Numbered from the stretch's first letter, positions 7,701 through 32,000 are shown. The stretch: 32,000 nt of DNA from Cereibacter sphaeroides 2.4.1 (GCF_000012905.2 NC_007493.2:1170001-1202000); one strand, 5' to 3'. Notes: generated by a model not told the origin, from the letters alone. A program made the numbers and translations.

Positions 7701-7725
7701 GGCCTCCCTTTCCTGTCCCATCGAT

Positions 7726-7753
7726 AAAGGGCCGGCGGAAGCCGGCCCTTTTC
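7726..7753. terminator. Rho-independent terminator, probably bidirectional (rnj on + and the lipoprotein gene on -)
   Basis: aaagggccggc-ggaa-gccggcccttt forms an 8-bp GC stem (7729-7736 with 7741-7748) extended by AAA/TTT, with a GGAA tetraloop and a T-run on the + strand. The A-run upstream gives a U-run on the - strand. Confidence 0.75.
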
Positions 7754-7881
7754 GTTGAAGCTATGGGCCCGCGCGCGGGGGCTGTTGGGACGAGGCCCTG
7801 CGGGATTTCCGCTTCGGCCAGACGAAGGGCGGCCGGGTTTCACCTCTGTCTCCGCAAACGAGCCTCACCCCGGCAGAGAGG

Positions 7882-8046
7882 TCAGTCGACCAGCGTTCCC
7901 GCCGCGCCGCCGACCAGTGCGCCGGGCGGGCCCGCGACAACCGCGCCCCCGAGGGCGCCGGTCGCTGCGCGCTCGGTGTCGTTGGAGCCGCAGGCGGCAA
8001 GGAGGAGAAGGCCCGCGAGGGGCAGGACGGCAGTGAGGCGGATCAT
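7882..8046 (-). CDS. Small (54 aa) Gly/Ala-rich lipoprotein, glycine-zipper-like
   Basis: The internal ATG at 8046-8044 gives MIRLTAVLPLAGLLLLAACGSND. This has a signal peptide plus the lipobox LAAC, followed by a GALGGAVVAGPPGALVGGAAG glycine-zipper-type tail. A GGAAAGG Shine-Dalgarno lies 7 nt upstream. Confidence 0.65.
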   Translation of the reverse strand: MIRLTAVLPLAGLLLLAACGSNDTERAATGALGGAVVAGPPGALVGGAAGTLVD

Positions 8047-8091
8047 GGCAGCACCTTTCCAAGTGGAGGATGCTGACCAACGCACAGCGCG

Positions 8092-8470
8092 CCGAATCGT
8101 TTCACGCTGGGGATGAGCCGCCTCGCAGAGGGACGGGCGCCTGCAAGGCGCCGGACCGTTGATCGGTGCAGATCGGGAGATTCCGGCCAGCAAAGCCGTC
8201 GAGTCCCGTCCCGGACGAGACGGTGCGCCCCGCCGAGGGACGCGTGCGCGGGTCTGTACGGCAGCGGGCTATCCCCAAGTGCGGATCGGGAGATCCCGGC
8301 CCGCAAGGCAGTCGAGGCGTTTCACGGAACAGATGACGGCCGTGCCGCTGAAGGCGCGCGGGGCGCCGCAGGGCGGTGGGCTGTCGCCCGGTGCAGACCG
8401 GAAGATCCCGGTTCCCGGGAATGAGAGCAGGTCTGCCTGACAAGGCCGGAAGATGAGGGCTCAAGGCCGG
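8092..8470. repeat. Intergenic tandem array, period about 112-113 nt, three full units plus a degenerate one
   Basis: A conserved 23-nt core occurs at 8166-8188 (gtgcagatcgggagattccggcc), 8279-8301 (gtgcggatcgggagatcccggcc; 21/23 identical) and 8391-8413 (gtgcagaccggaagatcccggtt; 18/23 identical). Flanks are degenerately similar, including cgtttcacg at about 8098 and 8317 and recurring gcaaggc motifs. Confidence 0.7.
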
Positions 8471-8497
8471 CACGCTGAGGCGCCGGCCAGTGCGGTC

Positions 8498-10048
8498 TCA
8501 GGCCTCGCCGTCGCCCGCCAGCATCTCTTCCGCGGCCTCGGGGACGGGCTCCTCTTCGTCGGAGGCCGTCAGGCTCGGGATGCGGAAGCTGCGGAGCAGG
8601 AAGTCCGGCACATGGTCGCCCATGCCCACCACGCGTTCCTCGCGGCGGTCGCGGTCACGCTCGCGCCGGTTGTTGCCGCCCTCGCGGCGCTCGTCGCGCC
8701 GCTCTTCGCGGCGGGGCGGGCGCTCCTCGCGCACTTCCCGCACTTCGGGAACGGCCGCGGCCGGGGCTTCCACGGCCTCGACCCGGGGCTCCTCGCGCCG
8801 GTCGCGGTCGCGGCCGCGACGGCCGCGCGCAGGGCGTTCGGACCGCTCGCCGCGTGCGTTGTCACGCTCGGGCCGGTCGGGGCGATCCTCGAGGCTGAAG
8901 CCCTCGGGCAGCTCGCCGCGCGGGATCGCCTGTTTCACGAGGCTCTCGATGGCGGTCACATGCTTCTCGTCCGACGGCACGGCGATCGTGTAGGCCTTGC
9001 CCTTCCGGCCCGCGCGGCCGGTCCGGCCGATGCGGTGGACGTAATCCTCGGGGTGGGTCGGCACGTCGAAGTTGAACACATGGCTCACCGCCGGAATGTC
9101 GAGCCCGCGCGCGGCCACGTCGGAGGCTACGAGCAGGTGCAACGACCCGTCGCGGAACCCGTCGAGCGTCTTCATGCGCTGCGACTGTTCGAGATCGCCA
9201 TGGATGGGCGACGCGTTGAAGCCGTGCTGCTTCAGCGACTTGGCCACCACGTCCACGTCCATCTTCCGGTTGCAGAAGATGATCGCGTTGGTGCAGGCCT
9301 CGCCTTCGGCCCGGATCAGCGCCCGCAGGACGGCGCGCTTGTCGGCGAAGCTACGCTCCTTCCGCGTCGGTGTGACCTGGATGAGCTTCTGCTCGATCGT
9401 CTCGGAGGTCGTGGCCTGCCGCGCCACCTCGATCTTCACCGCGCCGGTGAGGAAGGTGTTGGTGATCCGCTCGATCTCGGGCGCCATGGTGGCCGAGTAG
9501 AACAGCGTCTGGCGCGTGAAGGGCGTCAGCGAGAAGATGCGCTCGATATCCGGGATGAAGCCCATGTCGAGCATCCGGTCGGCCTCGTCCACCACCATGA
9601 TCTGCACGCCGGTGAGCAGAAGCTTGCCGCGCTCGAAATGGTCGAGGAGGCGTCCCGGGGTGGCGATCAGCACGTCCACGCCGCGGTCGATCAGCTTGTC
9701 CTGCTCGGTGAAGGAGACGCCGCCGATCAGCAGCGCCTTCGAGAGCTTGGAGTGCTTGGCATAGATGTCGAAATTCTCGGCCACCTGGGCTGCAAGCTCG
9801 CGCGTCGGGCAGAGCACGAGGCTGCGCGGCATCCGGGCGCGCGCGCGGCCCTTGCCGAGGATGGTGATCATGGGCAGCGTGAAGCTGGCGGTCTTGCCGG
9901 TGCCGGTCTGGGCGATGCCCAGCACATCCTTGCCTTCCAGCGCATGCGGGATGGCCTGCGCCTGGATCGGGGTGGGCGTTTCGTAGCCGGCTTCCTGCAC
10001 GGCCTTCAGCACGCGGGGATCCAGCGCGAGGTCGGAGAACTTGGTCAT
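8498..10048 (-). CDS. rhlE: ATP-dependent DEAD-box RNA helicase with an Arg/Glu-rich C-terminal extension
   Basis: It carries the Q-motif (GYETPTPIQAQAIP), Walker A (AQTGTGKT), DEAD (VVDEADRML), SAT, and HRIGRTGRAG. The start is taken at the ATG at 10048 (MTKFSDL), with an AGGA Shine-Dalgarno 5 nt upstream. The track ORF extends further, to 10174. Confidence 0.9.
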   Translation of the reverse strand: MTKFSDLALDPRVLKAVQEAGYETPTPIQAQAIPHALEGKDVLGIAQTGTGKTASFTLPMITILGKGRARARMPRSLVLCPTRELAAQVAENFDIYAKHSKLSKALLIGGVSFTEQDKLIDRGVDVLIATPGRLLDHFERGKLLLTGVQIMVVDEADRMLDMGFIPDIERIFSLTPFTRQTLFYSATMAPEIERITNTFLTGAVKIEVARQATTSETIEQKLIQVTPTRKERSFADKRAVLRALIRAEGEACTNAIIFCNRKMDVDVVAKSLKQHGFNASPIHGDLEQSQRMKTLDGFRDGSLHLLVASDVAARGLDIPAVSHVFNFDVPTHPEDYVHRIGRTGRAGRKGKAYTIAVPSDEKHVTAIESLVKQAIPRGELPEGFSLEDRPDRPERDNARGERSERPARGRRGRDRDRREEPRVEAVEAPAAAVPEVREVREERPPRREERRDERREGGNNRRERDRDRREERVVGMGDHVPDFLLRSFRIPSLTASDEEEPVPEAAEEMLAGDGEA

Positions 10049-19424: not shown

Positions 19425-20208
19425 GGGCCTCTCTCGTTTTCGATCATCTGCTTAGACGAGCGGGCGCCGGGGGTAAAGCACGCAGGTCCGGCACACGGCC
19501 CGAGGCGCCTGCATGTGGTCTGCGCGTGAGCTTTCGAACCGGAGGGCGGGTCTCTGCGGGGAACCATCCCGGACCCCGCGTGTTGCGGGGGCTCGGACGG
19601 GGCCACGCGGCCCTCGGTCAAGCCGCCCAACCGTTCATCGTAGGAGGTCCATGCCCGTGCTGCGCCGCCGCAGAAGACCGATGCAGGTGCAGCGGCGAGG
19701 CCCCGCCTGCGGCGGGAAACGGACCTTGATCTTCCCGGAGGTTCGCCGGTGGTTGGGGCAGGGGCGTCCGGTTCTTCACCTTGCGCGCACCGTGCGGGGC
19801 GTTCGTTCTACCTGGGGATGTTGCAATTACGTCCTTGAGTTGCAGAGGATTCCAGGATCACCGCAGGGCGGGAACTATCAATCGCAGCCTTGAAAAATGC
19901 CTAGAATCGGCGAGGATCATAAGGGCTGAAGCCTCGCCAGAGAATCACCCTCACCCGTCGGTGGAGCCCAGTGTCCTTTATGATTACGACGAGGCAATTT
20001 CGCGGGTGCAGCAAGAATCCGCACAACCGCGATGAATAAACCGCCCTGAAAATGGGCATGTCTTGACACTTTGGCGAAAGCGTTAGAAATTCTTGTTCTC
20101 ATTTGGACAATAATCAACCCGGAAGTCTTGGCACGACATGGCTCAGTAATTTCTGGATTAAAGTCGGTCCGTGCCTGAGTGGCGACACTCAAAAGCAACA
20201 GGTGTTTC

Positions 20209-20922
20209 ATGGAATTCAATCCACAATCGTCTCTGACTCCGGACAACGTCAGTCCGGATCACCTCTACCTGTCCTCGCTGCCACAGGTCGCCCAGGCGGC
20301 CTCTGCCCCCGTGGGCGGGGTGCTGAAGCGGCTCATCGACGTGGCCATCGCGGTGACGGCGCTGATCGCGCTCGCGCCGCTCATGATCGGCGTGGCGCTG
20401 ATCATCTGGTTCGGCAGCAACGGCCCGATCCTCTACGGCCACCAGCGCGTGGGGTTCGGCGGGCGGACCTTCCGCTGCTGGAAGTTCCGCTCGATGGTGG
20501 TGGACGGCGACGTGGTGCTCGAACGCCACCTGCGCGCCAACCCCGAGGCGCAGCGGGAATGGGAGCGTGACCGCAAGCTTCGCAAGGACCCGCGGGTGAC
20601 CCCCATCGGCGCCGTGATCCGGATGCTGTCGATCGACGAACTGCCGCAGCTGTTCAACATCCTCGCGGGCGAAATGAGCGTCGTGGGCCCCCGTCCGGTG
20701 GTCGCCGCCGAGCTGCGCCGCTACCGCGGGTCGGCCGGTCACTATCTGCGCACCCGCCCGGGCCTCACCGGCATGTGGCAGGTGAGCGGCCGCAGCGACC
20801 TCAGCTACCGGCAGCGCGTCCTGCTCGACCGCTACTATGTGATGCGCTGGACGGTGGTTTCCGACCTCGCGATCATCCTGCGTACGGTCCCGGCGGTGCT
20901 TCGCTCGCGCGGCTCCTGCTGA
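20209..20922 (+). CDS. exoY: Undecaprenyl-phosphate sugar phosphotransferase (bacterial sugar transferase family, ExoY-like priming enzyme)
   Basis: KRLIDVAIAVTALIALAPLMI (TM helix), FRCWKFRSM, DPRVTPIGAVIRMLSIDELPQLFNILAGEMSVVGPRP and RPGLTGMWQVSGRS are present. These are the hallmark PF02397 motifs, and the size and C-terminus resemble rhizobial ExoY. The start could be the GTG at 20179 or the ATG at 20209. Confidence 0.88.
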   Translation: MEFNPQSSLTPDNVSPDHLYLSSLPQVAQAASAPVGGVLKRLIDVAIAVTALIALAPLMIGVALIIWFGSNGPILYGHQRVGFGGRTFRCWKFRSMVVDGDVVLERHLRANPEAQREWERDRKLRKDPRVTPIGAVIRMLSIDELPQLFNILAGEMSVVGPRPVVAAELRRYRGSAGHYLRTRPGLTGMWQVSGRSDLSYRQRVLLDRYYVMRWTVVSDLAIILRTVPAVLRSRGSC

Positions 20923-20993
20923 CCTCCCACTCCTTTTGGCAGCGGCCGCGGCGGAAGCTCCCGCCGCGCCTTCATGTTCAGAAAGGTATCCGA

Positions 20994-22226
20994 ATGGCTG
21001 CCCTGCGCCGTCACCTCCTTCCCCTGTTCGTCGTGGCGCTCCTGCCCGGCGTTGCTCTGGCCGACAGCTACACGATCAGCGAGAGCGACCTGCTTCGCCT
21101 GCGGGTGCTGGAATGGCAGCCCGTCGACGGCACCATGCGCGAGTGGGAGGCGATGACGGGGGAATATCGCGTCAATGCCGACGGCACGATCTCCGTCCCG
21201 TTTCTCGGCCCGGTCGAGGCCGCAGGCCACACGCCCGCCCAGCTCGGCACGCTGATCGCCGACGGGCTGATGGAGCGCCTGGCGCTGCCGGACATGCCCG
21301 ACGCGACCATCGAGATCGCCGAATACCGCCCCATCATCGTCGCGGGCCATGTGCGCGAGCCGGGCGAGGTCGTCTTCCGCCCGGGTCTGACCGCACGGCA
21401 GGCCATCGCCATGGCGGGCGGCCCCAGCGACGAGATCCGCAGCACGCCCGCCCTCGTGCGCGACCTGATCTCCGAGGAGGGGGCGCTGCGCATCCTGCTC
21501 GACAGCCGCGAGGGCATGATGGCCCGGCGCGCCCGGCTTCTGGCCGAGCGGGACAACCAGACCGAGCTCGGCCCGGTGCCCGAACTCGACACGGCGCGGG
21601 GCCGCGCGCTCCTGGCCGAAGAGAAGTCCTTCATGGATCTCCGCCGCGATCAGGTGGACCGGAACCTCGCGGCCATCGACGCCCAGAGCGAGCTTCTGAA
21701 GGCCGAGATCGAGGCGCTGCAGGCGAAGACCGGCCAGCTCGAGACCCAGCGCACGCTGGCCGAGAAAGAGACCGCCAACGCCAAGAACCTCTCGGAGCGG
21801 GGCCTCGTCGCCAGCGGTCGCCTGTTCGAGACCCAGCGCACCCTGTCGACGGTCGAGAGCCAGCTGCTCGACACCTCCACCGCCATCCTGCGCGCGCGTC
21901 AGGGCATCACCACCGCCGAGCGCGACCGGATCGCGCTGATCGACGGACGGTCGTCCGAGATCGCCGCGCAGCTGCAGGAGGTCGAGGCGCAGATCCTCGA
22001 GATGGACCGCAAGATCGACACGCAGCGCAGCCTGTCGGTGTCGCTCCTGAGCCAGGCGGGCGGGAAGGATGTGGCGGCCGATCCCTCGACCATTGCCGCC
22101 ATGAGCGATGTCGTGGTGATGCGCTTTGCGGGCAACGAGATGCGCCAGATCCCCGACGCGATGGACGTCCGGCTCGAACCGGGCGACATGGTGCAGATGA
22201 CCCTGCGGGCGCCGTCTACGAACTAG
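20994..22226 (+). CDS. exoF: Polysaccharide export protein (Wza/ExoF family) with a coiled-coil C-terminal half
   Basis: The start is the ATG at 20994 (MAALRRHLLPLFVVALLPGVALA signal peptide). A Poly_export-like segment (DLLRLRVLEW...YRVNADGTISVPFLGPVEAAG.TPAQL), an SLBB-like segment (IIVAGHVREPGEVVFRPGLTARQAIAMAGG) and then a long heptad-rich region follow. Confidence 0.8.
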   Translation: MAALRRHLLPLFVVALLPGVALADSYTISESDLLRLRVLEWQPVDGTMREWEAMTGEYRVNADGTISVPFLGPVEAAGHTPAQLGTLIADGLMERLALPDMPDATIEIAEYRPIIVAGHVREPGEVVFRPGLTARQAIAMAGGPSDEIRSTPALVRDLISEEGALRILLDSREGMMARRARLLAERDNQTELGPVPELDTARGRALLAEEKSFMDLRRDQVDRNLAAIDAQSELLKAEIEALQAKTGQLETQRTLAEKETANAKNLSERGLVASGRLFETQRTLSTVESQLLDTSTAILRARQGITTAERDRIALIDGRSSEIAAQLQEVEAQILEMDRKIDTQRSLSVSLLSQAGGKDVAADPSTIAAMSDVVVMRFAGNEMRQIPDAMDVRLEPGDMVQMTLRAPSTN

Positions 22227-22262
22227 GGGCGCCCCCGCTGCGGGACATGGAACGCTGACTTG

Positions 22263-22295
22263 AGGAGGGCGCCGGCCGCGGCCCCTCCTTTTTTA
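22263..22295 (+). terminator. Rho-independent terminator after the exoF-like gene
   Basis: aggaggg(c)gccg-gccg-cggcccctcct forms an 11-bp stem with one bulge and a GCCG loop, followed by a T-run that overlaps the end of the stem, 37 nt after the stop. Confidence 0.75.
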
Positions 22296-22401
22296 TGGGC
22301 GGTGGGCCGGGACCGCTCTCCACCCGGATCCCGACCGGAGGGGCGCAGTGCTCCGGCCGTGTGGCACCGGGCCAGCCGGCTCGAAGACGGGCGGGTCGAC
22401 C

Positions 22402-23691
22402 TCAGGCGGCTGCGGTGGGAGGACCGTCCGAGGGCAGGCGCACGTTGCGACGGACGGGGGCGCCGACGGGCAGGCGCGCCTCGCGCATCCGGCGCACGCC
22501 GTAGACCAGGGCTGCCACCAGCATGAGGGTCATGAGGTCGAACTGGGTGTAGCCCACCACCTCGGACATGCTGAGCACGGCGCTGCGCATCATCAGCGCG
22601 GTGAGGAAGATGGACTCGGCCCGGGGCTCGCGGAAGGCCCAGAGCACCGCGAGGCCGAGCGCGCCGAACAGCGCCGCCGCCTGCATCGCCACGCCGATGG
22701 CGCCGATCTCGACCGCGTTCGAGATGAAGGTGTTGTGGAAGTGGAAACCGCGCTTGCCTTCGATGCCGAACTCGCTCCACATCGCCTCGGCCCCGGGGTT
22801 CCCGGGCACCCAGTAGGCCTGGAAGCCCACGCCGGTGAAGGGATGCTGCACGATCTCGCGGAAGGCCAGCGCCCAGAGCTCGGTGCGGCCGGTGAGGGTC
22901 GCGTCCTTGCCCGTCGTCTCGAGGATCAGCGCCATCACCTCGTCCTGCAGCGCGACGAGCAGGATCGTCACCACGATCCCGAGCCCCAGCGTGAAGCCCG
23001 CCAGCAGCAGACGCTGGGTCACGGTGAGCCAGCGGCCGAGGAAGAAGGGCAGGGCGAAGGCCAGTGCCGCGCCGGTGGCCAGAAGCTGGCCCGCCGACTG
23101 GGCCTGGATCAGCAGGAAGGTTCCGAGCAGGAAGGCCCCCGTCGCCACCAGCCGCCAGCTGCGCGGCTGATTGCGGTCGAGCATGATGGCGAAGGCGCAG
23201 AGCATCAGCGTCGACATCGGCAGCGAGAAGGCGTTCTTCGAGCCGAAGATGCCGAGCCAGCCGTTCCCGTCCGACCGGACGCGCCCGAAGAGCACGCTCA
23301 GGACGGCCGCCAGCAGATGCGCGCTGAAGAGGATGCGCAGGAAGGTGAGCGGCGACAGCCGGTTGGCGATGGCCACCGCAATCGCGAAGGTCACGCAGAG
23401 CTGGATGCCGTAGCGCAGGCTCAGCGAGGCATATTGCGACCAGAGCACCGTGAAGAGGCACCAGCCCGCAAGCGCGAAGATCATCCAGTAGCGGCGGATC
23501 TCGAGAAGCGCGGTATGGGGCCGCCTTACGACGAGGAGGCAGCCCGAGGCGAGGAAGCCCGCCGCCGCGATCGAGCCCACCCACTGCACGAGCAGCAGGG
23601 ACAGGATCGTGAGGAACGCCAGAACCGCCGTCGGACAGACGTCGATGAAGACCCCGGCGGAGCGGGGGGGGCGCGGTCGGACGGCGGTCAT
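22402..23691 (-). CDS. O-antigen ligase / Wzy-type polysaccharide polymerase family membrane protein (ExoQ-like)
   Basis: 429-aa polytopic protein with the Wzy_C-type motif FHFHNTFISNAVEIGAIG near the large periplasmic loop. It starts 16 nt downstream of the stop of the upstream GH16 gene on the same strand. Confidence 0.75.
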   Translation of the reverse strand: MTAVRPRPPRSAGVFIDVCPTAVLAFLTILSLLLVQWVGSIAAAGFLASGCLLVVRRPHTALLEIRRYWMIFALAGWCLFTVLWSQYASLSLRYGIQLCVTFAIAVAIANRLSPLTFLRILFSAHLLAAVLSVLFGRVRSDGNGWLGIFGSKNAFSLPMSTLMLCAFAIMLDRNQPRSWRLVATGAFLLGTFLLIQAQSAGQLLATGAALAFALPFFLGRWLTVTQRLLLAGFTLGLGIVVTILLVALQDEVMALILETTGKDATLTGRTELWALAFREIVQHPFTGVGFQAYWVPGNPGAEAMWSEFGIEGKRGFHFHNTFISNAVEIGAIGVAMQAAALFGALGLAVLWAFREPRAESIFLTALMMRSAVLSMSEVVGYTQFDLMTLMLVAALVYGVRRMREARLPVGAPVRRNVRLPSDGPPTAAA

Positions 23692-23707
23692 CGGGTCAGG
23701 CGTCTCC

Positions 23708-24490
23708 TCAATTCTCCAGCTGACATAGCACGGATTCGGGGAACTGGCACGCCTCTCCCGGCGCGGTCCAGGCTACCCAATCGACCTCGAGCGCGACCGG
23801 TTTCTGCGGCGCGCGGAAGGCCCCCATCCATTCGGTCAGGACATCGGTGCTCCAGTGGCTGAAGAAGATCTTCTGCGCGGTCACGGGCAGGGTCTCGGTC
23901 GCCTCGTGGACGAGCTTGCCATCGACGAACCAGCGGATGCGCTCGGGCTCCCAGATGAAGGAGAACGTATGCCAGTCCTCGTCGGTCGGCGGGTCGAGCG
24001 CGACCTTGGCCCCGTTCTTCGGCTCGCCCGAGACATAGGTGTTCACATCGACCGAAGAGGTGTTGCGGGTCAGGATCTCGAAATCGATCTCGTCATGGGG
24101 CTCGCCATGGACGGGGCCGATGTAGCTGAAGAAGGCCGCATTCAGCCCCGAAGCCCGGTGATCGGTGCGCACGCGGGCTTCGAACGTGCCATGCAGGTAG
24201 CGCTCCTGCGTCTGGATCTCCGAACAGCGGTTCTTGCCCTGGCCCGAGGGGTCGGTGAAATACATTAGCTTCAGGATGCCGTCATCGGCGCGCACCGCCT
24301 TCTGCGACCAGTCGCAGTTCTGGTGCGGGCCGTTGGTCCAGCCGTCCGAGATGAACCAGCGCTTGCCGTTGATGCGGTCGAAATCCTCGCGGAAGGAGGC
24401 GGGCCCGTCCTGCGCCGCAGCGGGCAGGGCGAGGAGAAGGGGCAGGCTCGCCGCAAGGCAGCGGCGCAGAAGGGTCTGACGGGGACTCAT
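23708..24490 (-). CDS. exoK: Secreted glycoside hydrolase family 16 endo-beta-1,3-1,4-glycanase (ExoK-like)
   Basis: It has a signal peptide (LPLLLALPAAAQDG), the GH16 catalytic motif HDEIDFEIL (ExDxE), and the flanking segments RWFISDGWTNG, IRWFVDGKLVHE and KIFFSHW. Confidence 0.85.
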   Translation of the reverse strand: MSPRQTLLRRCLAASLPLLLALPAAAQDGPASFREDFDRINGKRWFISDGWTNGPHQNCDWSQKAVRADDGILKLMYFTDPSGQGKNRCSEIQTQERYLHGTFEARVRTDHRASGLNAAFFSYIGPVHGEPHDEIDFEILTRNTSSVDVNTYVSGEPKNGAKVALDPPTDEDWHTFSFIWEPERIRWFVDGKLVHEATETLPVTAQKIFFSHWSTDVLTEWMGAFRAPQKPVALEVDWVAWTAPGEACQFPESVLCQLEN

Positions 24491-24695
24491 CGGGGGCTCC
24501 GTTTCTGTTCGGTCCAGAGGTTAGGCGGCGCGGGCCTCCGTGGCGACCTCTCCGCGATCACATTGGCAACAGCTTGCCGCGGTGCCGCATAAGTTGGCAG
24601 ACTGGCCCGCACGGCCGCGCCTTGGCGCCGCGCCGGCTTACGCCCTTCGCACAGGGCGGTTACACAGGAACGATTCGGGCTGGGGCGGAGGACTT

Positions 24696-26126
24696 ATGCG
24701 GATTTCGGTGCTGATGGCGAACTACCGCGGTGCGGCCTACCTGCCCGAAGCGGTCGAATCGGTCCTGCGCCAGAGCCACACGGACCTCGAGCTCATCGTG
24801 GTGGACGATGCCTCGGGCGACGAGAGCGTGGCACTGCTCCAAGAGATCGCGGCCACGGACGACCGCGTCCGGGTGATCGCGATGGCGCAGAACGGCGGCC
24901 CGTCGGCGGCGCGCAACCGCGCCCTCGAAGCGGCCAGCGGCGACTGGCTCGCGGTGATGGATTCCGACGATGTGCTCCACCCCGACCGTCTGGCGCGGCT
25001 TCTCGCGGCGGCCGAGGCGCTCGAGGTCGATGCGGTGGCCGATGACATGCTGTTCTTCGGCGAGACGCCGGATGCGAGCGGCCGCACGCTGCTCGAGAGC
25101 CTGCATCTGGTCGAGCCGATGGCGGTGGATGCGGCGACCTTCGTCGCGGCGAACGGCGGGTCGGACGATCTTCCGCCCATGGGCTACCTGAAGCCTCTGG
25201 TGCGCCGCGAGGCCTGGGGCGCCCTGCGCTACGACGAGACGCTGCGGGTGGGCGAGGATTACGACCTCTATCTCCGGCTTCTCCTGTCGGGCGCGCGGCT
25301 CGCGCTGCTGCCCGAGGCGCTCTATCTCTACCGTCGCCACTCCGCCTCGATCTCGCACCGGCTGTCGGTGGGCACGCTGGAGCCGCTTCTCGCGGCACAC
25401 GACCGGTCGGCGGCGGGCGAGACCGATGCGGCGCTTCTCGCCATGATGCAGCGCAGGCGCGCGGGGCTGGTGCGGCTGCTTGCCTTCGAGCATCTGGTGG
25501 CCGCGATCAAGGCCCGGCGGCCGGTGGCGGCCCTCGCGGCCCTCCTGCGCCGGCCGGTTCTGACGCTCGAGCTGGTGCGGAGCCTGCGCGAGCGGCTGGG
25601 GCGGCGGGCGGCCGAGGCGGTCGAGCCGCATCCCTTGTCGATCGTGCTCTCGGCCGATCCGCGGCCCGTGGGCGAGGGGCAGCGGCTGGTGGCGGTGCCG
25701 CCGCTGCTGCCGCCCGAGCATCCCCATCCCTGGCCACCGGCACAGCAGGCGGCGCTTCTTTCCGATCTCGCGGCGCGCCACGAGCTCGACATCTGCGCCG
25801 AGGGCGAGGAGGGTCTGTTCTGGCTCTGGCTGGTGCCACGCTGGACCCGCGCCGAGGTGGTGCTGCCCGAGGGCAGCTGGGCAGAGCTGCCCCCCGGAGC
25901 CGAGCTCGCCGCCTGGACGCTCGAGGAGGAGGAAGAGGAGACCGCGAAGGACGAGCCCATCGGCGGCGAGTTCGACACGGCCTTCGATCCGGACCTCGAA
26001 GAGGACGTGGCCGCGGAGGAGCTCGGAGACCCGGCGGCGCCGGACGGAGAGCCATCGCGGCGGACCGTCTGGCGCGACCCGTCCGACGAGGACGAGGCCG
26101 AGGAGCGGGCCGGCCGGTCGCGCTGA
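24696..26126 (+). CDS. Family 2 glycosyltransferase with a roughly 230-aa non-GT C-terminal extension ending in a highly acidic tail
   Basis: The start is the ATG at 24696 (GGAGGA Shine-Dalgarno just upstream): MRISVLMANYRGAAYLPEAVESVLRQSHTDLELIVVDDASGDES...NGGPSAARNRALEAASGDWLAVMDSDD (DxD). The C-terminus contains EEEEEETAKDE...DEDEAEE. Confidence 0.82.
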   Translation: MRISVLMANYRGAAYLPEAVESVLRQSHTDLELIVVDDASGDESVALLQEIAATDDRVRVIAMAQNGGPSAARNRALEAASGDWLAVMDSDDVLHPDRLARLLAAAEALEVDAVADDMLFFGETPDASGRTLLESLHLVEPMAVDAATFVAANGGSDDLPPMGYLKPLVRREAWGALRYDETLRVGEDYDLYLRLLLSGARLALLPEALYLYRRHSASISHRLSVGTLEPLLAAHDRSAAGETDAALLAMMQRRRAGLVRLLAFEHLVAAIKARRPVAALAALLRRPVLTLELVRSLRERLGRRAAEAVEPHPLSIVLSADPRPVGEGQRLVAVPPLLPPEHPHPWPPAQQAALLSDLAARHELDICAEGEEGLFWLWLVPRWTRAEVVLPEGSWAELPPGAELAAWTLEEEEEETAKDEPIGGEFDTAFDPDLEEDVAAEELGDPAAPDGEPSRRTVWRDPSDEDEAEERAGRSR

Positions 26127-26141
26127 CCGGCCCGCGGCTCG

Positions 26142-27098
26142 TCAGACCGGCAGCAGGAACCGCTCGGCCCGGGGCGGGGCAGGTGGGCGCAGGGCGGCGA
26201 TCTTGTCCCGCGCGACCCCCTTCGCGATGGGAAGGAAGCGCGCGGGCGGGGCGAGCGCAAAGCCGAGGGCCGCGCCGAGGCCTGCCTCGGCCTTCCGGTC
26301 GAGGAACTGGCGCAGCAGGAGCTTGGCCTGCACCTGCCGCAGATGGCGGCGCATCGCCTCCTGCGTGGCGGGCGAAGCGGGCATCTCCAGATGCGCCCGG
26401 CAGCAGGCCTCCAGCGCCGCCAGATCCGCCGTCCGATGCCGCCCCGAGAGCGACGCGCCGCGCTGGACCGCGGCATAGCCTACGGCCCGCGTCAGGCCGA
26501 AGCGCGCGCCCAGCAGAAGCATCCGCATGTAGAGGTCGAAATCTTCGCCGAGCCACATGCGCTCGTCATAGCGGAGCCCGTGGCGGGTGAGGAAGGCGCG
26601 CGACATCACGGGCTTCAGAAAGCCCAGTTCGCCGCGGTGCACCCCCTGCGCCAGATTGCCGAGCGCGAACCGTTCGGCGTCGAGCATCTCCACCTCGCGC
26701 GGGGCCGCCGGCAGGTTGGTGGGATCGAGCCGGGCCGCATGCTCGGGCGTCACGAAGACGATGTTGTCGGCCGCGAGATCGAGATCCGGGTCGAGCCGCG
26801 CGAAGCGGCCGGGCAGGAAGAAGTCGTCGGCGTCGAGTATCGCGATGCGCGGCGCCTGCGAGAGCGCCACAGCGCGGTTGCGCGCCGCCGACGGCCCGCC
26901 GTTCTGCGCCTGCCGCTCGACGATCAGCCGGCCGCTGCCATCGGAGGCCGCAAGCGCGGCCTCGGCGGTGGCATCGGAAGAGGCATCGTCGACCACGACC
27001 ACCTCGGCCACCTCGGCTTCGGCGAGGGCAGAGGTCACGGCCTGCGCGATGGTGGCTTCGGCATTGTAGGCGGCGATGATGACGCAGATGTCGCTCAT
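26142..27098 (-). CDS. Family 2 glycosyltransferase
   Basis: 318 aa: MSDICVIIAAYNAEATIAQAVTSAL...VVVVDDASSDAT...NGGPSAARNRAVALSQAPRIAILDADD. The start ATG overlaps the stop of the upstream nucleotidyltransferase gene as ATGA. Confidence 0.85.
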   Translation of the reverse strand: MSDICVIIAAYNAEATIAQAVTSALAEAEVAEVVVVDDASSDATAEAALAASDGSGRLIVERQAQNGGPSAARNRAVALSQAPRIAILDADDFFLPGRFARLDPDLDLAADNIVFVTPEHAARLDPTNLPAAPREVEMLDAERFALGNLAQGVHRGELGFLKPVMSRAFLTRHGLRYDERMWLGEDFDLYMRMLLLGARFGLTRAVGYAAVQRGASLSGRHRTADLAALEACCRAHLEMPASPATQEAMRRHLRQVQAKLLLRQFLDRKAEAGLGAALGFALAPPARFLPIAKGVARDKIAALRPPAPPRAERFLLPV

Positions 27099-28231
27099 GC
27101 GGCTTTTCCTTCACGGCGGGCAATCAGGCCGGAGCGGATCAGCCCCTTCAGCCAGAGGCGGTGGGCTTCGGAGGATTTCGCCGCCAGAGTCTCGCGCGCG
27201 AAGCGCAGGGGATGGCGGCCCGAGAGCGCCCAGAGGATGCGGCTCCGGCGTGGCCAGTCGAGGTCCGGTTGCCAGGGCGCAACGAGCATCCGGCGCAGAT
27301 CCGGCGCGGGCAGGGCGCCGAGCGGGTTCGACCCCTGCGCGTAAGGTCGGGGAGAGAGGCCCTCGAACAGGGTGTCGACCCCGTGGCTGGCGAGCGCGAG
27401 CGTTTCGCTCAGCCCTTGCGCGGCCGCGATGCCGGGCAGGGCGCGGGCCTCGTCGGGGCTGAGCCGGTCGAGGCTCGCCCGCAGATCGCAGAGATGGCCG
27501 GCGCAGGGCTCCTGCGCGACGAAGGCCTTCACCACGCCGATGGCCGCGACGAGGCAGCGGTCGGGCCCGGACACCATCGGCACCCTCTGCCCGGCGTAGG
27601 ACATGTCCGTGGCGCGGGTAAGGAAGTCCGCCGTATGCCGCGGGCGCGGTGCGCCGGGTTGCTGGAGCCGGTGGTGGAGGTCCACCACAGGTCCGCCCTC
27701 GGGGCGGCGGAAATGCTGCTCGCCCAGATGCCGCGTCCACCAGTCGGCGAGCTCTGCCTCCTGTGCGACGTAGCCCGCCGCGCGCAGGGCCGCCGCAGCG
27801 GTGGCCAGATCGGCCTCTGCCACCAGCAGATCGACGTCACCCGTGGGCTTCCAGCAGGGGCCGCCATAGAGCGCGATCTGCTGGAGCGGCCCCTTGAACT
27901 GGACGTGGGCGATCCCCGCCTCCTGCATCAGCCGCGCCACTTCGAGGCTCGTGCGCAGGCTGTGGCCGTTCCGCGCGGCGGTCTGAAGCCGCATCGTCTC
28001 GAGCTGCGGCGCCATCGCCGACCAGTCGGCGGGAAGGTCGGCGGGGCGGGGCGCAAGGAAAAGTCCCACCTTGTTCAGCCGCCCCATCTCGAAGAGCACC
28101 CGGGGCGTGACGCCCTCGGGAAGCTCCGCGGGGTCGCCGAAGCTGCGGGCGAGCGCCCGGCGCAGGGCCTCGGTCTCCGTCCGGCACGCGTGTTCACGCA
28201 CGAGGGCGAACTGTTCAGGCGCGAAGGTCAT
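27095..28231 (-). CDS. Uncharacterised nucleotidyltransferase-fold protein (NTP_transf_5 / PF14907-like), a candidate lasso-peptide tailoring enzyme
   Basis: About 378 aa from the ATG at 28231 (MTFAPEQFALV...); the track ORF begins at a GTG at 28273. The segment KGPLQQIALYGGPCWKPTGDVDLLV...VVDLHHRL resembles the pol-beta-type G[SG]...DxD core of this family. It is transcribed divergently from the lasso precursor gene. The family call comes from motif recall and is not verified. Confidence 0.65.
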   Translation of the reverse strand: MTFAPEQFALVREHACRTETEALRRALARSFGDPAELPEGVTPRVLFEMGRLNKVGLFLAPRPADLPADWSAMAPQLETMRLQTAARNGHSLRTSLEVARLMQEAGIAHVQFKGPLQQIALYGGPCWKPTGDVDLLVAEADLATAAAALRAAGYVAQEAELADWWTRHLGEQHFRRPEGGPVVDLHHRLQQPGAPRPRHTADFLTRATDMSYAGQRVPMVSGPDRCLVAAIGVVKAFVAQEPCAGHLCDLRASLDRLSPDEARALPGIAAAQGLSETLALASHGVDTLFEGLSPRPYAQGSNPLGALPAPDLRRMLVAPWQPDLDWPRRSRILWALSGRHPLRFARETLAAKSSEAHRLWLKGLIRSGLIARREGKAA

Positions 28232-28407
28232 CCCGTCCCTTTCGTCCGGATCCTGCCCCCCATCTCGAATCACTCGCAGGAGGGAGAGGCGCTCCTACCT
28301 CAAAATGAGGTCGGAGTCGCCATTCGAGTGAGGATCTTCGCGTTAAGGTTGTTGAATCTGATGATTTTTCGGGCAGCATCTTTTTCGCGGAAAGATTATT
28401 GCTCATT

Positions 28408-28436
28408 TTGACCTCAACTGCCGATTGCATTATTCA
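28408..28436 (+). promoter_or_regulatory. Candidate sigma70-type promoter for the lasso precursor operon
   Basis: TTGACC (28408-28413), 17 nt, then TATTCA (28431-28436), within the AT-rich divergent intergenic region about 140 nt upstream of the precursor start. This is a sequence match only. Confidence 0.25.
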
Positions 28437-28576
28437 CGTCATCTGATAAATATTTTCGTTAGACTGTCAGAGTGCGCTGCGCTCGGACTCTCCCCGCGTT
28501 GACTTCATGCTCGTCCGGACACAGGCTTTGGATCGGTCCTATAGGCCGTAGATACCTTATCCTGAGGAAATTTGAC

Positions 28577-28729
28577 GTGGCAAACAACATCCAAACCCTT
28601 GCGTACGAAGCTCCCGTGCTGCGCGTTCATGGCACGCTCGAAGCGATGACCCATGGTGCGACCGACGGCTGGGCCCTCGACGCCTCGTTCCCGGTGGACA
28701 CTCCCAAGGGCGACCTGACCTTCTCCTGA
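28577..28729 (+). CDS. Lasso peptide precursor (A): 26-aa leader plus 24-aa core
   Basis: The GTG start has a GAGGA Shine-Dalgarno 8 nt upstream. The peptide is (M)ANNIQTLAYEAPVLRVHGTLEAMTH|GATDGWALDASFPVDTPKGDLTFS. The leader matches YxxPxLx3Gx5Tx exactly (Y10, P13, L15, G19, T25). The core starts with Gly and has Asp at position 9. It lies immediately upstream of the B1, B2 and C genes. Confidence 0.85.
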   Translation: MANNIQTLAYEAPVLRVHGTLEAMTHGATDGWALDASFPVDTPKGDLTFS

Positions 28730-28751
28730 TTTCAGGACGAAGCTGACGACG

Positions 28752-28780
28752 GGTCGAGGCAGTCCATGACTGCCTCGACC
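28752..28780 (+). promoter_or_regulatory. Perfect 13-bp stem-loop between the precursor and B1 genes (candidate partial terminator or mRNA stabiliser)
   Basis: ggtcgaggcagtc-cat-gactgcctcgacc lies 23 nt after the precursor stop. There is no immediate T-run (tatgaaagacatttt follows). Confidence 0.5.
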
Positions 28781-28809
28781 TATGAAAGACATTTTACATC
28801 CAAGGAATA

Positions 28810-29076
28810 ATGACCGTGAGCATCAGGGCGGCCGAAGGCTGCGTTCCCTGCGCGTTCGGCGATGGCATCGCCATCTTCGACACGAGCAGCAACTCCTATT
28901 TCAGCATGAACGCCGTGGGCGAGTTCGTGTGGTCGCAACTCGACCAGCCGATCACGCTCGAGGATCTGGTCGGGCGCGTGGCCGACCGTTACCGGATCGA
29001 ACCGACGGTCTGCGAGGGCGACATCCGCAAGCTGGTGGATGATCTCGCGGCGCACCGGCTCGTGACCCTGTCCTGA
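28810..29076 (+). CDS. Lasso peptide biosynthesis protein B1 (PqqD-family RiPP recognition element)
   Basis: 88 aa with a PqqD-like pattern: IAIFDTSSNSYFSMNAVGEFVWSQLDQPITLEDLVGRVADRYRIEPTVCEGDIRKLVDDLAAHRLV. The GTG at 28816 is an alternative start. Confidence 0.85.
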   Translation: MTVSIRAAEGCVPCAFGDGIAIFDTSSNSYFSMNAVGEFVWSQLDQPITLEDLVGRVADRYRIEPTVCEGDIRKLVDDLAAHRLVTLS

Positions 29077-29086
29077 CGGAGGCTCC

Positions 29087-29560
29087 ATGCGTCGACTGCG
29101 CCGCATCCTCTCGCTCCGGCCGGCCGAGGCATGGGCCTTGTGTCAGGCGCTGGTGACGGTGGCCGCGGTCCGCCTCGCCATTGCCCGGCGGCGGACGGAC
29201 GAGGTGCGGGCCGCAACGGCGGCGCTCGGGGCCGAACGTCAGGCGCCCCAGTCCGACCTGCGGGTCGTGGCCTGGAGCGTGACGGCGGCGGCGCGGCTGA
29301 TCCCCGGCGCCACCTGTCTCACGCAGGCGCTGGCCGGGCAGAGGATCCTCGCCCGCAAGGGCTATGCCTCGACGGTGCGGCTGTCCCTGCCGGCGGGACG
29401 CGACAGCGACTTCCGCCCCCATGCTTGGCTGCTGGCCGGCAATGTCATCGCGCTCGGCGGCACGGCGACGGATTATCGCCATCACCGCGCGCTTCTGGAT
29501 TATGAAAGCTCGGGCCGGGCCGATCCGGTTTCCGAACCTGCGACGGGAGCCGGGCAATGA
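29087..29560 (+). CDS. Lasso peptide biosynthesis protein B2 (transglutaminase-fold cysteine leader peptidase)
   Basis: 157 aa with the catalytic-Cys context GATCLTQALAGQRILARKG and the His context FRPHAWLLAGNVIAL typical of lasso B2 proteins (PF13471-like). The stop overlaps the C start as ATGA. Confidence 0.85.
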   Translation: MRRLRRILSLRPAEAWALCQALVTVAAVRLAIARRRTDEVRAATAALGAERQAPQSDLRVVAWSVTAAARLIPGATCLTQALAGQRILARKGYASTVRLSLPAGRDSDFRPHAWLLAGNVIALGGTATDYRHHRALLDYESSGRADPVSEPATGAGQ

Positions 29561-31437
29561 GCGCGCTTGCAGCCTTCGTCACGCTGGGCGGAGATCCGGG
29601 CGAGGCCCAGAGCCGCGTCCTGTCGATGCTGTCCGCCATGCCCACGCGCGGCACGGAGCTCCGGGTGCGCGCGCTGACCGCGGGCGTGGCGCTGGGGCAC
29701 GGGCGGCCCGCGGGGCGCGGCGGCCTCGGGCCCTGGCGGTTGCGGCCGGGCGGCCCGGTCCTGACCGGCACCGTGCGGCTCGACAACGGTCCCGAGCTGC
29801 GCCGCGCGCTGGGGCTGGCCGAGGCCTCCGACGCCGAGACGGTGCTCGCGGTCTATGACCGCTGGGGGCTCGATCTGCCGCTCCATCTCGACGGCGACTT
29901 CGCGCTGGCCCTGTGGGATCCTGTGGCCGCGCGCCTCATCGGGCTGCGCGACCGGTTCGGCGTCCGCCCGTTCCTCTACCGCGCGACGCCGCAGGCGGTG
30001 GCGGTTGCCTCCGGCATCGAGGCGCTGGTGGCGGCCTTTCCCGCCTGCGAGCCCGCCCTCGACGAGGTCTGGATCGCGGAATATCTATCTGGCCAGCCCA
30101 CCTGTGCCCGCCGGACCGTCTATCGCGGCATCTCCCGGCTCGAGCCCGCCCACATGCTGCTGGTCGAGAAGGGCCGGACCGAGGTCCGTCGCTACTGGCA
30201 GCTGGAGGTGGCGCCGCGGCGCCGCGCCGATCCGCCCGAAGCGCTGCTCGAACTGCTCGACCGCTCCGTGACGGCGCGGATGCAGGGCGGCCCGGTGGGC
30301 TCGATGCTGAGCGGAGGGCTCGATTCCGGCACGGTCTCGATGCTGGCTTCACGCCGGTCGGAGGGGCCGCTGCCGGTCATCTCGATGAAGTTCGACGATC
30401 ATCCGGAGATCGACGAGAGCGAGTGGATCGCGAAGATCCATGCTGCCGGCCGGTTCCGTCCGGTCTGGATCGACGGTCGTGACGCCCATGGTGGCGATGT
30501 GGCCGAGCTGCTGGCCGAGCAGGGGGGGCCCTTCTTCGCGCCCAATCTGGCCACCTCGCGCTGGCTCTACCGGCGCGCGGCGGAGGCCGGCGTCGAGATT
30601 CTGCTCGACGGCCATGGCGGCGACGAGGTGATCTCCTTCGGCGTGGCCCGGCTGACCGAACTGGCCTCCGAGGCCCAATGGCGGACCCTCTGGCAGTCGA
30701 CGGCCGCCGTGTCGGACCTGTTCGGCGGATCGCGGCGGGAGTTCTTCCTGAATTCGATGGCGCAGGGCGCGCAGTCCCGCTGGCTGCGCGCCATGGCGCG
30801 GCGGCTGAATGTGGGCGCAAAGCGCGATCCCCGGGCGTGGCGGCAGGCGCTCCATCCGGCGCTGGTGGCGCGGACGGGCCTCGTCCAGCGCGTGCAGGAG
30901 GCGGCCGGCGCGCGCAAGCGGGGGGCCACCGACGACATCCGCCAGCATGTGGCGACCCTGACCGCCCCGCGCTATCCGACCACGCTCGAAGTGCTCGACC
31001 GCGCAGCCACGCTCTGCGGGATCGAGCCGCGCTATCCGTTCCTCGAGCGGCGGCTGATCGAACATTGCGTGGCCCAGCCCGCCGCGGCGAAGTTCCACGA
31101 TGGCATGACACGCGCCCTCCTGCGCGATGCGGTGCGGGGGCTTCTGCCCGACGAGGTGCGGCTGCGCACCAGCAAGACCAATTTCACCCCCAACGTCCGC
31201 GCGCGCATGCTGACGAGCTGGGGCGACAATCTCAACCGGATCGCCGGCTGCAATCCCGGCCGGATCGGCGACTATGTCGATCTGGCCGTCATCCGCGAGG
31301 GCATCCAGCGGCTGCGGGCGGGCGAGCCCGACCAGCCGGCCCTCCTCCAGACCATGCGGGCGGTCGTGCTCGACGAATGGCTGCGCGGCGGATCGTCCGC
31401 GCTGGCCCCCCGCCTCGACAGAAGGACCCCCGCATGA
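29557..31437 (+). CDS. Lasso peptide cyclase C (asparagine synthetase-like, ATP-dependent macrolactam synthetase)
   Basis: 626 aa with an AsnB-like fold and the PP-loop SMLSGGLDSGTVS. The N-terminal nucleophile Cys2 is absent (the protein starts MSAL), as in lasso cyclases. It lies in the A-B1-B2-C context. Confidence 0.88.
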   Translation: MSALAAFVTLGGDPGEAQSRVLSMLSAMPTRGTELRVRALTAGVALGHGRPAGRGGLGPWRLRPGGPVLTGTVRLDNGPELRRALGLAEASDAETVLAVYDRWGLDLPLHLDGDFALALWDPVAARLIGLRDRFGVRPFLYRATPQAVAVASGIEALVAAFPACEPALDEVWIAEYLSGQPTCARRTVYRGISRLEPAHMLLVEKGRTEVRRYWQLEVAPRRRADPPEALLELLDRSVTARMQGGPVGSMLSGGLDSGTVSMLASRRSEGPLPVISMKFDDHPEIDESEWIAKIHAAGRFRPVWIDGRDAHGGDVAELLAEQGGPFFAPNLATSRWLYRRAAEAGVEILLDGHGGDEVISFGVARLTELASEAQWRTLWQSTAAVSDLFGGSRREFFLNSMAQGAQSRWLRAMARRLNVGAKRDPRAWRQALHPALVARTGLVQRVQEAAGARKRGATDDIRQHVATLTAPRYPTTLEVLDRAATLCGIEPRYPFLERRLIEHCVAQPAAAKFHDGMTRALLRDAVRGLLPDEVRLRTSKTNFTPNVRARMLTSWGDNLNRIAGCNPGRIGDYVDLAVIREGIQRLRAGEPDQPALLQTMRAVVLDEWLRGGSSALAPRLDRRTPA

Positions 31438-32000
31438 GTGCCCTCCAGTCGCTCCGCCCCGCACTGCGCACCGCCTACGGCTTGGCCGTTCGGTCGGACA
31501 TCGACCTGCCCGAACTCGAGCCCCTGCCGGGCGACGGGGCTGCGGATCTGACCGTGCGCCGCGGCGCGCTTCCGGAGTTGCCGGGCGAGGGAGGCTTCCG
31601 CACGCGCTTCGCGCCCGAGCGGGCCGAGCTCTGGTGGCAGACGGTCGGCACCTTCCGTGTCGAGCCGGGCCTCGTGACGGCAAGCCCCCATGCCGGCGTC
31701 TCCGAGGATCTGGTGGCCTATCCGCTTCTGGGCTCGGTGCTGGCGCTGGCGCTGGAGCAGCTCGGCCTCTTCACGATCCATGCGAGCGCCGTCTCGGTCG
31801 GCGGCCATGGCGTGGTGATGATGGGCGACAAGGGCGCCGGCAAATCCACCACCGCCACGGCGATGATCCGGGCGGGCCATCCGCTGATTGCCGACGATAT
31901 CGTGGCGGTGGACGAGGGGTTCCGGCTGCGCCCCGGCTTCCCGCAGGTGAAGCTCTCGCCCGCGGCGGCGGCGGCCTTCGACGCGCCCGATGCGGTCCAC
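31434..32000 (+). CDS. HPr-kinase-like serine kinase (lasso peptide kinase candidate), 3'-truncated by the window edge
   Basis: This ORF is not in the supplied track because it is open at the window end. The ATG at 31434 overlaps the C stop as ATGA. My translation is MSALQSLRPALRTAYGLAV...LGLFTIHASAVSVGGHGVVMMGDKGAGKSTTATAMIRAGHPLIADDIVAVDEG. HASAV followed by a GxxGxGKST P-loop and then ADD is the HprK C-terminal-domain pattern. Confidence 0.75.
   Translation, partial: MSALQSLRPALRTAYGLAVRSDIDLPELEPLPGDGAADLTVRRGALPELPGEGGFRTRFAPERAELWWQTVGTFRVEPGLVTASPHAGVSEDLVAYPLLGSVLALALEQLGLFTIHASAVSVGGHGVVMMGDKGAGKSTTATAMIRAGHPLIADDIVAVDEGFRLRPGFPQVKLSPAAAAAFDAPDAVH

Follow-up and report, generated by a model that had tools for sequence, protein, structure and literature searches.

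Which peptide would a kinase-equipped lasso cluster of Cereibacter (Rhodobacter) sphaeroides 2.4.1 make, and what might that peptide be for? The question is raised by the 3' part of a 32,000-nucleotide (nt) stretch of this genome (NC_007493.2:1170001-1202000), hereafter the window, in which positions are counted from the first letter. An earlier note, made from the sequence alone, had read positions 27095-32000 as a cluster for a lasso peptide, a ribosomally synthesized and posttranslationally modified peptide (RiPP), with a split B protein and an HPr-kinase-like kinase in an alphaproteobacterial setting; protein domains, catalytic residues, and a canonical precursor support this assignment. 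We hold with good confidence that RSP_2554 to RSP_2559 constitute an intact paeninodin-like (kinase-type) lasso cluster in the proteobacterial A-B1-B2-C-K-D arrangement, acting through the pathway proposed below. Its features in the window and those of the divergent operon are the following (aa, amino acids; RBS, ribosome-binding site; ORF, open reading frame).

26142..27098, minus strand: GT2 glycosyltransferase, ATGA-coupled to the NTP_transf_5 gene (PF00535, 4e-24)
27095..28231, minus strand, ORF open to 28273: NTP_transf_5 nucleotidyltransferase-fold protein, PsmN-like, 378 aa (PF14907)
28232..28576, no strand: divergent, AT-richer intergenic control region (G+C content and three-species alignment)
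28577..28729, plus strand: precursor gene A (RSP_2554), 50 aa, GTG start with a GAGGAA RBS 7 nt upstream
28649-28729, plus strand: core region of the precursor, its tail more conserved than the ring interior or the enzymes
28751..28781, plus strand: perfect 14-bp G+C-rich hairpin between A and B1 (folding against shuffles)
28810..29076, plus strand: B1, PqqD-like RiPP recognition element (leader-binding chaperone), 88 aa (PF05402)
29087..29560, plus strand: B2, transglutaminase-fold cysteine protease (leader peptidase), 157 aa (PF13471)
29557..31437, plus strand: C, asparagine-synthetase-like lasso macrolactam cyclase, 626 aa (PF00733)
31434..32000, continuing past the edge, plus strand: K, HPr-kinase-like peptide Ser kinase (RSP_2558), 306 aa on contig L001 (PF07475)

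All ORFs of the five co-directional genes and of the divergent pair lie where the earlier note had placed them, and the ATGA stop/start overlaps that it had described at B2/C and C/K are both present; a third, on the minus strand, joins NTP_transf_5 to GT2. The cluster does run off the 3' edge, with 189 of the 306 codons of K in the window. Its continuation was found on a public contig, L001 (ENA ERZ938332), which matches window positions 19557-32000 with 0 mismatches (shift, +19556) and extends 10 kb further. There, K overlaps by 4 nt the gene for D, an ABC transporter of 618 aa with ABC_membrane and ABC_tran domains, and the system is therefore complete as A-B1-B2-C-K-D, the co-directional order of the clade (A to K in the window, D on L001). 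The statement that no ABC exporter is present thus holds for the window but not for the system. L001 is itself a 238-kb "human skin metagenome" contig that shares 12.4 kb with the window at 100% identity; it therefore represents C. sphaeroides DNA in a skin data set, perhaps from a control or contaminant instead of a resident of the skin. Exact protein matches from C. sphaeroides 2.4.1 identify the precursor as RSP_2554 (ABA78712.1), C as RSP_2557 (ABA78715.1), and K as RSP_2558 (ABA78716.1). The numbering of the lasso genes as RSP_2554 to RSP_2559 is anchored on one side by RSP2543 to RSP2545, which are the M23 peptidase gene, pcm, and surE in the window (PMC5442454), and on the other by RSP_2561, or exoP, the Wzz/GNVR gene 3' of the exporter (PMC9275681).

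When the profiles named in the earlier note were searched, PF05402, PF13471, PF00733, PF07475, and PF14907 all matched above curated Pfam cutoffs. B1, which is conserved in orthologous loci, matched PF05402 at 5e-16 (59 bits against a cutoff of 23). B2 matched PF13471 at 2.9e-19 and the lasso_biosyn_B2 model NF033537 at 50 bits against a cutoff of 33, and its Cys77, His112, and Asp138 are invariant in the alignment. C matched PF00733 at 2.6e-45, in addition to GATase_6/7, and its best NCBIfam model is the lasso isopeptide cyclase NF033535 (2e-109, 367 bits); it has an ATP-binding SGGLDS motif at residue 252 and, because its N terminus reads MSALA, lacks the Cys2 glutaminase nucleophile that true asparagine synthases have. 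No lasso isopeptidase was found within 10 kb on either side, and B is split into two ORFs, in contrast to the astexin type.

The kinase K matched PF07475 at 1.3e-11 on the 189 codons in the window and aligns to the catalytic core of the HPrK/P structure 1ko7. In an alignment of 15 kinases sharing 35-88% identity, His116, Lys137 (within GDKGAGKSTT), Asp154, and Asp155 are invariant. These residues constitute the His-Lys-Asp-Asp motif, which mutagenesis has shown to be essential in lasso kinases (PMC9266682), and place K among them. A profile search with K at E <= 1e-30 returned 5343 representatives (50%-identity clusters); the class is therefore common.

The 50-aa precursor consists of the leader MANNIQTLAYEAPVLRVHGTLEAMTH and the 24-aa core GATDGWALDASFPVDTPKGDLTFS. 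The leader reads ...AYEAPVLRVHGTLEAMTH and has both the YxxPxL recognition motif and the Thr at position -2 that mark class II lasso precursors. The core starts with Gly1 and carries Asp9, as an isopeptide ring calls for (Gly, Ala, Ser, or Cys first and Asp or Glu at positions 7 to 9), and the precursor ends in ...DLTFS, with the C-terminal Ser of kinase-type clusters. The GTG start and RBS are conserved in three Cereibacter/Rhodobacter species, and the public record of the exact 50-aa product (UniRef) is entitled "Lasso RiPP family leader peptide-containing protein." When the precursor itself served as the query, no more than two proteins came back, since gene callers seldom report such short peptides.

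The cluster was then followed into its relatives. Many C. sphaeroides strains have the locus in place, as do C. johrii, C. azotoformans, and Rhodobacter sp. NSM. On the accessory status that the earlier note had left to a comparison of relatives, the locus proved to be kept in place across Cereibacter species; for this reason, and because its G+C content is like that of the surroundings, a strain-specific island was rejected. A nucleotide-contig scan with the K sequence found Cereibacter and Rhodobacter relatives only, kinase-homologue look-ups revealed the same block in Mesorhizobium, Paracoccus contaminans, Caulobacter sp. S45, and one further assembly, and a metagenome scan added 80 loci. 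After the block was mapped by tblastn and dereplicated at 70% kinase identity, B1-B2-C-K-D was present in 34 lineages, with kinase identity down to about 30%. The cluster is thus not a chance assembly, since the block recurs. In every lineage examined, a precursor ORF lies directly upstream, as the earlier note would have it adjoin homologous clusters. In L078 and L079, two kinase-type sets of lasso genes stand directly next to each other, and the genes of the second set follow another order.

Across loci L001-L089, the family set comprises 23 distinct precursors. All 23 end in Ser and carry Thr at -2; Asp9 is present in 22, and 16 have a core of 24 residues. In cores of this length, the tail (positions 9-24, consensus D-A-s-F-P-x-g-T-P-x-g-d-L-T-F-S) shows 63% mean pairwise identity, compared to 38% for ring positions 1-8 and about 35-50% for the kinases. 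Conservation of the tail across genera so far above that of the ring interior is unusual for lasso peptides and suggests a conserved partner or recognition by tailoring enzymes. The precursors of L044, L050, L052, L055, L058, L062, L070, and L089 have two Cys residues (core position 4 and about 22-24) and a longer tail, ...LTCGAEDGLS, which suggests a disulfide-bridged variant of the same family. L060 and L089 each have two tandem precursor genes.

Divergent from the precursor gene, the NTP_transf_5/GT2 operon described earlier was recovered as such: both families matched on the minus strand above their curated cutoffs (PF14907 at 2.3e-26), and the two genes are ATGA-coupled. The start that had been assigned to NTP_transf_5, GTG at 28273, gives merely the longest ORF; the likely start is the ATG at 28231, which has an AGGGA RBS and agrees with public gene calls. 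Lys113, Gly114, Asp132, and Asp134 of the protein are invariant. Its AlphaFold model (pLDDT 89) has the pol-beta-type proteins MenT1, LnuA, and ANT(2'')-Ia and, more weakly, FKRP as Foldseek neighbors. PsmN, the corresponding protein of the pseudomycoidin cluster, has the catalytic pair D134/D136, and its templates were the ANT(2'')-Ia structures 5cfs and 4xje (PMC6993621). The DxD pair at 132/134 matches that of PsmN, and the structural neighbors 5cfs and 4xje are common to both proteins. Thus, by its DxD pair, its fold, and its place in the cluster, NTP_transf_5 is PsmN-like. A PDB sequence search with NTP_transf_5 gave no matches, and a word-index search gave 20, none of them from Firmicutes. 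The gene is divergent to A in 11 of the 15 dereplicated lineages, and the adjoining NTP_transf_5-GT2 pair is kept in the Cereibacter, Mesorhizobium-type, L009, L036, and L069 lineages. The coupled GT2 is a candidate tailoring enzyme or, alternatively, the first gene of a polysaccharide locus.

How, then, does the cluster relate to characterized systems? Zhu et al. (2016) distinguished five lasso clades, including "A B1 B2 C K D" as a putative proteobacterial clade (PMC5067487), which bears out the earlier statement that proteobacterial kinase loci had been predicted bioinformatically; the same source agrees that characterized proteobacterial systems have an intact B. As far as that source presents the putative clade (Hegemann 2013 and Zhu 2016, via PMC5067487), which includes the SyanK/SyanA locus, its members and the present cluster have the same gene order and a split B, and they share as well a K with His-Lys-Asp-Asp, a Ser-ending precursor, an ABC exporter, and an alphaproteobacterial host. 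SyanK of Sphingobium yanoikuyae ATCC 51230 (poly)phosphorylates SyanA in vitro at its C-terminal Ser; this kinase and ThcoK act on the C-terminal Ser of linear precursors, and the peptide of the SyanK locus is still called putative in reviews (PMC9266682, PMC8498205). Since SyanK is characterized, the class is not wholly uncharacterized in Proteobacteria. The earlier claim that no characterized product was known from such a locus therefore stands as regards mature products, none of which was found reported from a proteobacterial A-B1-B2-C-K-D locus in our literature search, but not as regards the kinase.

Among other systems, paeninodin (PadeK, Paenibacillus dendritiformis C454) is likewise of class II, with split B1/B2, an exporter, and a kinase that acts on the linear precursor at its C-terminal Ser (PMC9266682, PMC8498205); it differs in its Firmicutes order, C-A-K-B1-B2-D, in its phylum, and in its precursor, which shares little beyond the C-terminal Ser. 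Pseudomycoidin (PsmK and PsmN; Bacillus pseudomycoides) resembles the present cluster in having both a kinase and an NTP_transf-type DxD protein with ANT(2'')-Ia neighbors. PsmN is needed for the addition of one or two hexoses to phospho-Ser (PMC6993621). While psmN lies between B2 and D, the gene here is divergent, upstream of A, and coupled to GT2. The astexin, caulosegnin, and sphingopyxin types are also alphaproteobacterial class II systems with an Asp/Glu isopeptide ring, but they have a fused B and an isopeptidase and no kinase or exporter (PMC5067487). Paeninodin-like/LPP clusters of Bacilli lie in capsule loci but belong to another phylum with other polysaccharide machinery, and the LPP clusters have a signal peptidase in place of B2 and C (PMC13381572). 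Altogether, the cluster carries all tested features of class II lasso peptides, of the kinase type, and of the A-B1-B2-C-K-D clade and lacks those of the astexin type. The locus type is already catalogued, and antiSMASH lasso clusters have been flagged in C. sphaeroides strains (PMC11676352); the present cluster is an uncharacterized example of it.

Genes, families, catalytic residues, precursor features, and synteny are established; we infer from characterized homologs every chemical step, as well as threading and the timing of phosphorylation. The best-supported route is the one known for paeninodin-type peptides. B1 would bind the 50-aa precursor via the YxxPxL leader, and K, by extension from ThcoK, SyanK, and PsmK, would phosphorylate the linear precursor at its C-terminal Ser, perhaps more than once. 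B2 would cut the leader after Thr-His; C would activate the side chain of Asp9 with ATP and join it to the amine of Gly1, giving a 9-residue ring threaded by a 15-residue tail; and D would export the product. NTP_transf_5, perhaps with the coupled GT2, probably adds a sugar to the phosphate, by analogy with PsmN. The product probably carries phosphate on its last Ser. Predicted neutral monoisotopic masses are 2449.144 for the unmodified peptide, 2529.110 with one phosphate, 2609.076 with two, and 2691.163 with one phosphate and a hexose.

Several points weigh against this interpretation of RSP_2554 to RSP_2559. In NCBIfam, the lasso PqqD models score 1e-10 on B1, below their strict cutoffs; C, at 367 bits, falls below the 525-bit cutoff of NF033535; and matches of the precursor to lasso-leader models are weak and below cutoffs. 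The literature search turned up no expression or product evidence for the locus and no paper that names RSP_2553 to RSP_2558. Pseudomycoidin made without kinase and PsmN was not threaded (PMC6993621), and threading therefore cannot be assumed. Finally, the role given to NTP_transf_5 rests on a single in vivo Escherichia coli study, which left the sugar and the mechanism open.

Two intergenic stretches may bear on expression of the cluster. The hairpin between A and B1 folds at -31.8 kcal/mol (z, -4.3), a value equalled by 0 of 200 shuffles. Hairpins of unrelated sequence occupy the same place between A and B1 in L006-L009, making five genera with the present one; those of L007, L008, and L009 beat their shuffles and that of L006 does not (z, -1.3), and a U-tract follows two of the L007-L009 hairpins. 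At 28751-28781, neither a T-tract nor a classical terminator follows the stem, which probably acts in attenuation or transcript stabilization and would thereby raise the precursor transcript over that of the enzymes. A promoter-like site at 28782-28811 overlaps the start of B1 and was not regarded as meaningful. G+C content falls to 0.60 at 28001-29000, which takes in the divergent intergenic region, compared to about 0.72 on either side. The blocks TGATAAATATTTTC (28444-28457) and CGTTGAC (about 28498-28504) are conserved in C. sphaeroides, C. azotoformans, and Rhodobacter sp. NSM and are possible sites for a promoter or regulator. Scanning the window for Rfam families and tRNAs gave no matches.

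The surroundings of the cluster bear on its function. The lasso genes lie inside a succinoglycan-like exopolysaccharide locus (window 20209-26126; L001 14785-21873), whose further features include the following.

20209-20922, plus strand: priming transferase (gene calls and Pfam on L001)
20994-22226, plus strand: Poly_export (gene calls and Pfam on L001)
22402-23691, minus strand: Wzy_C (gene calls and Pfam on L001)
23708-24490, minus strand: GH16 (gene calls and Pfam on L001)
24696-26126, plus strand: GT2 (gene calls on L001, Pfam on the window)
L001 14785-15042, minus strand, and L006 10862-11134: small predicted membrane protein, 79-90 aa in four genera, on the opposite strand directly after the exporter

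Downstream of D on L001, the small membrane protein is followed by exoP, two GT2 genes, a GT4 gene, and an NTP_transferase (sugar nucleotidyltransferase) gene. In Mesorhizobium, the small membrane protein gave a weak match (9e-5, below cutoff) to SyrA/ExoX, the "exopolysaccharide production repressor" family, and the Cereibacter copy gave no SyrA match. The GT2 at 24696-26126 has a long C-terminal extension that is highly acidic and of low complexity (EEEEEETAKDEP...DEDEAEE). The 5' part of the window is housekeeping (nuoLMN-like genes, birA, coaX, a DEAD-box helicase gene, prfC, tatABC, an M23 peptidase gene, pcm, and surE); at 6030-8498, the G+C third-position filter returned no gene, yet long ORFs are present (e.g., 5529-7700, plus strand).

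Adequate flanks were available for 15 of the 34 lineages. A hallmark polysaccharide assembly or export gene (Wzz/GNVR, priming transferase, Poly_export, or Wzy_C) lies within about 10 kb of the cluster in 12 of these 15, a frequency judged against a rough, inferred expectation of a few per cent rather than a genome-wide background; the other 3 have glycosyltransferases only. The linkage persists in Mesorhizobium, Paracoccus, Caulobacter, and most metagenomic lineages, with the polysaccharide genes arranged differently from genus to genus. Exceptions are Paracoccus contaminans (L007), which has no NTP_transf_5, and L090, L063, and L074, which have no hallmark polysaccharide gene nearby. L090 carries, at 809-2628, a more distant A-B1-B2-C-K locus beside a 2OG-Fe(II) oxygenase and a LuxR-type response regulator, with no polysaccharide genes in its 7.4 kb; thus, not every member of the wider kinase family has a polysaccharide context. 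A search of a limited library found no paper on an alphaproteobacterial linkage between polysaccharide and lasso genes. From the linkage, the conserved tail, and the nucleotidyltransferase-GT2 coupling, a polysaccharide-related role for the cluster is plausible but unproven.

If the cluster does make a lasso peptide, what is the peptide for? It is possible, although doubtful, that it is an ordinary secreted antimicrobial with immunity provided by the ABC exporter, its polysaccharide neighborhood being incidental. A McjD-like ABC transporter follows K, and exporter-containing lasso clusters such as that of microcin J25 encode antimicrobials with transporter-based immunity (PMC5067487). Nonetheless, strong conservation of the core tail across genera and a polysaccharide linkage that recurs despite rearrangement both argue against an antimicrobial, and no such activity has been reported for the characterized phosphorylated lasso peptides, whose roles are called unknown (PMC13381572).

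A second proposal concerns function and leaves the biosynthesis as described: the role of the cluster would be tied to the exopolysaccharide locus rather than to antibiosis, with a phosphate-glycosylated tail joined to the polysaccharide or its repeat unit, or with a peptide that regulates polysaccharide or biofilm formation. We regard this as unlikely, though supported from several directions. Hallmark genes stay near the cluster in the 12 of 15 lineages despite their rearranged order; an arms-race antimicrobial would not usually have its tail conserved so far above the ring interior and the kinase; translational coupling joins NTP_transf_5 to GT2; and FKRP, which transfers ribitol phosphate onto glycan, is among the structural neighbors of NTP_transf_5. 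Likewise, paeninodin-like clusters of Bacilli colocalize with capsule loci (PMC13381572). On the other side, the linkage could reflect co-inheritance of one ancestral locus, the 12 of 15 is weighed against a rough expectation instead of a genome-wide frequency of polysaccharide genes, and the exceptions named above, L007 for NTP_transf_5 and L090, L063, and L074 for the hallmark genes, do not conform. Furthermore, exo-type loci, for example, that of Sinorhizobium meliloti, work without lasso genes, and we know of no chemistry linking a RiPP to a polysaccharide.

Carried further, and quite unlikely in our judgment, the same idea would make the phospho-lasso peptides of this alphaproteobacterial clade parts of exopolysaccharide systems and not free antibiotics. 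Phospho-Ser would serve as a handle for the PsmN-like enzyme and GT2, yielding a peptide-phosphodiester-glycan conjugate, or as a mark on a peptide that controls export or chain length. If so, the capsule-locus association in Bacilli would represent one shared function across phyla.

We give little credence to the possibility that in this strain the locus is silent or has decayed, yielding nothing, or that its peptide is merely branched-cyclic, with no threaded tail. Our literature search found no expression data, and many lasso clusters are cryptic in the laboratory; however, all reading frames are intact and catalytic residues are conserved, as are the start codon and RBS of the precursor, and identical or near-identical copies occur in the strains and species of Cereibacter and Rhodobacter listed above. 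The unthreaded state of pseudomycoidin lacking its tailoring steps (PMC6993621) would fit the second form of this explanation. Almost no weight attaches to the view that there is no lasso system at all, merely an asparagine-synthase-like amidotransferase and an HprK-related/PqqD cassette of the polysaccharide locus: C, K, and B1 do match the XrtA/PEP-CTERM amidotransferase, HprK_rel_A, and PqqD_rel_X models, all far below cutoffs, and the context is polysaccharide, but we rejected this reading: C reaches 367 bits with the lasso cyclase model and 146 with that of the amidotransferase and has no Cys2, B2 passes its lasso-specific cutoff, and a canonical precursor lies directly upstream in every lineage examined.

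The lasso cluster of RSP_2554 to RSP_2559 thus leaves a question of function that extends beyond this genome, as literature from 2026 describes what phosphorylated lasso peptides do as unknown (PMC13381572). The exopolysaccharide placement in alphaproteobacteria parallels the capsule-locus association in Bacilli described there, and this placement across genera, together with the conserved tail and the nucleotidyltransferase-GT2 pair, points to a polysaccharide-linked role. C. sphaeroides 2.4.1 is a genetically tractable model organism, and this setting and the recurrent polysaccharide context make the role of phosphorylated lasso peptides directly testable.

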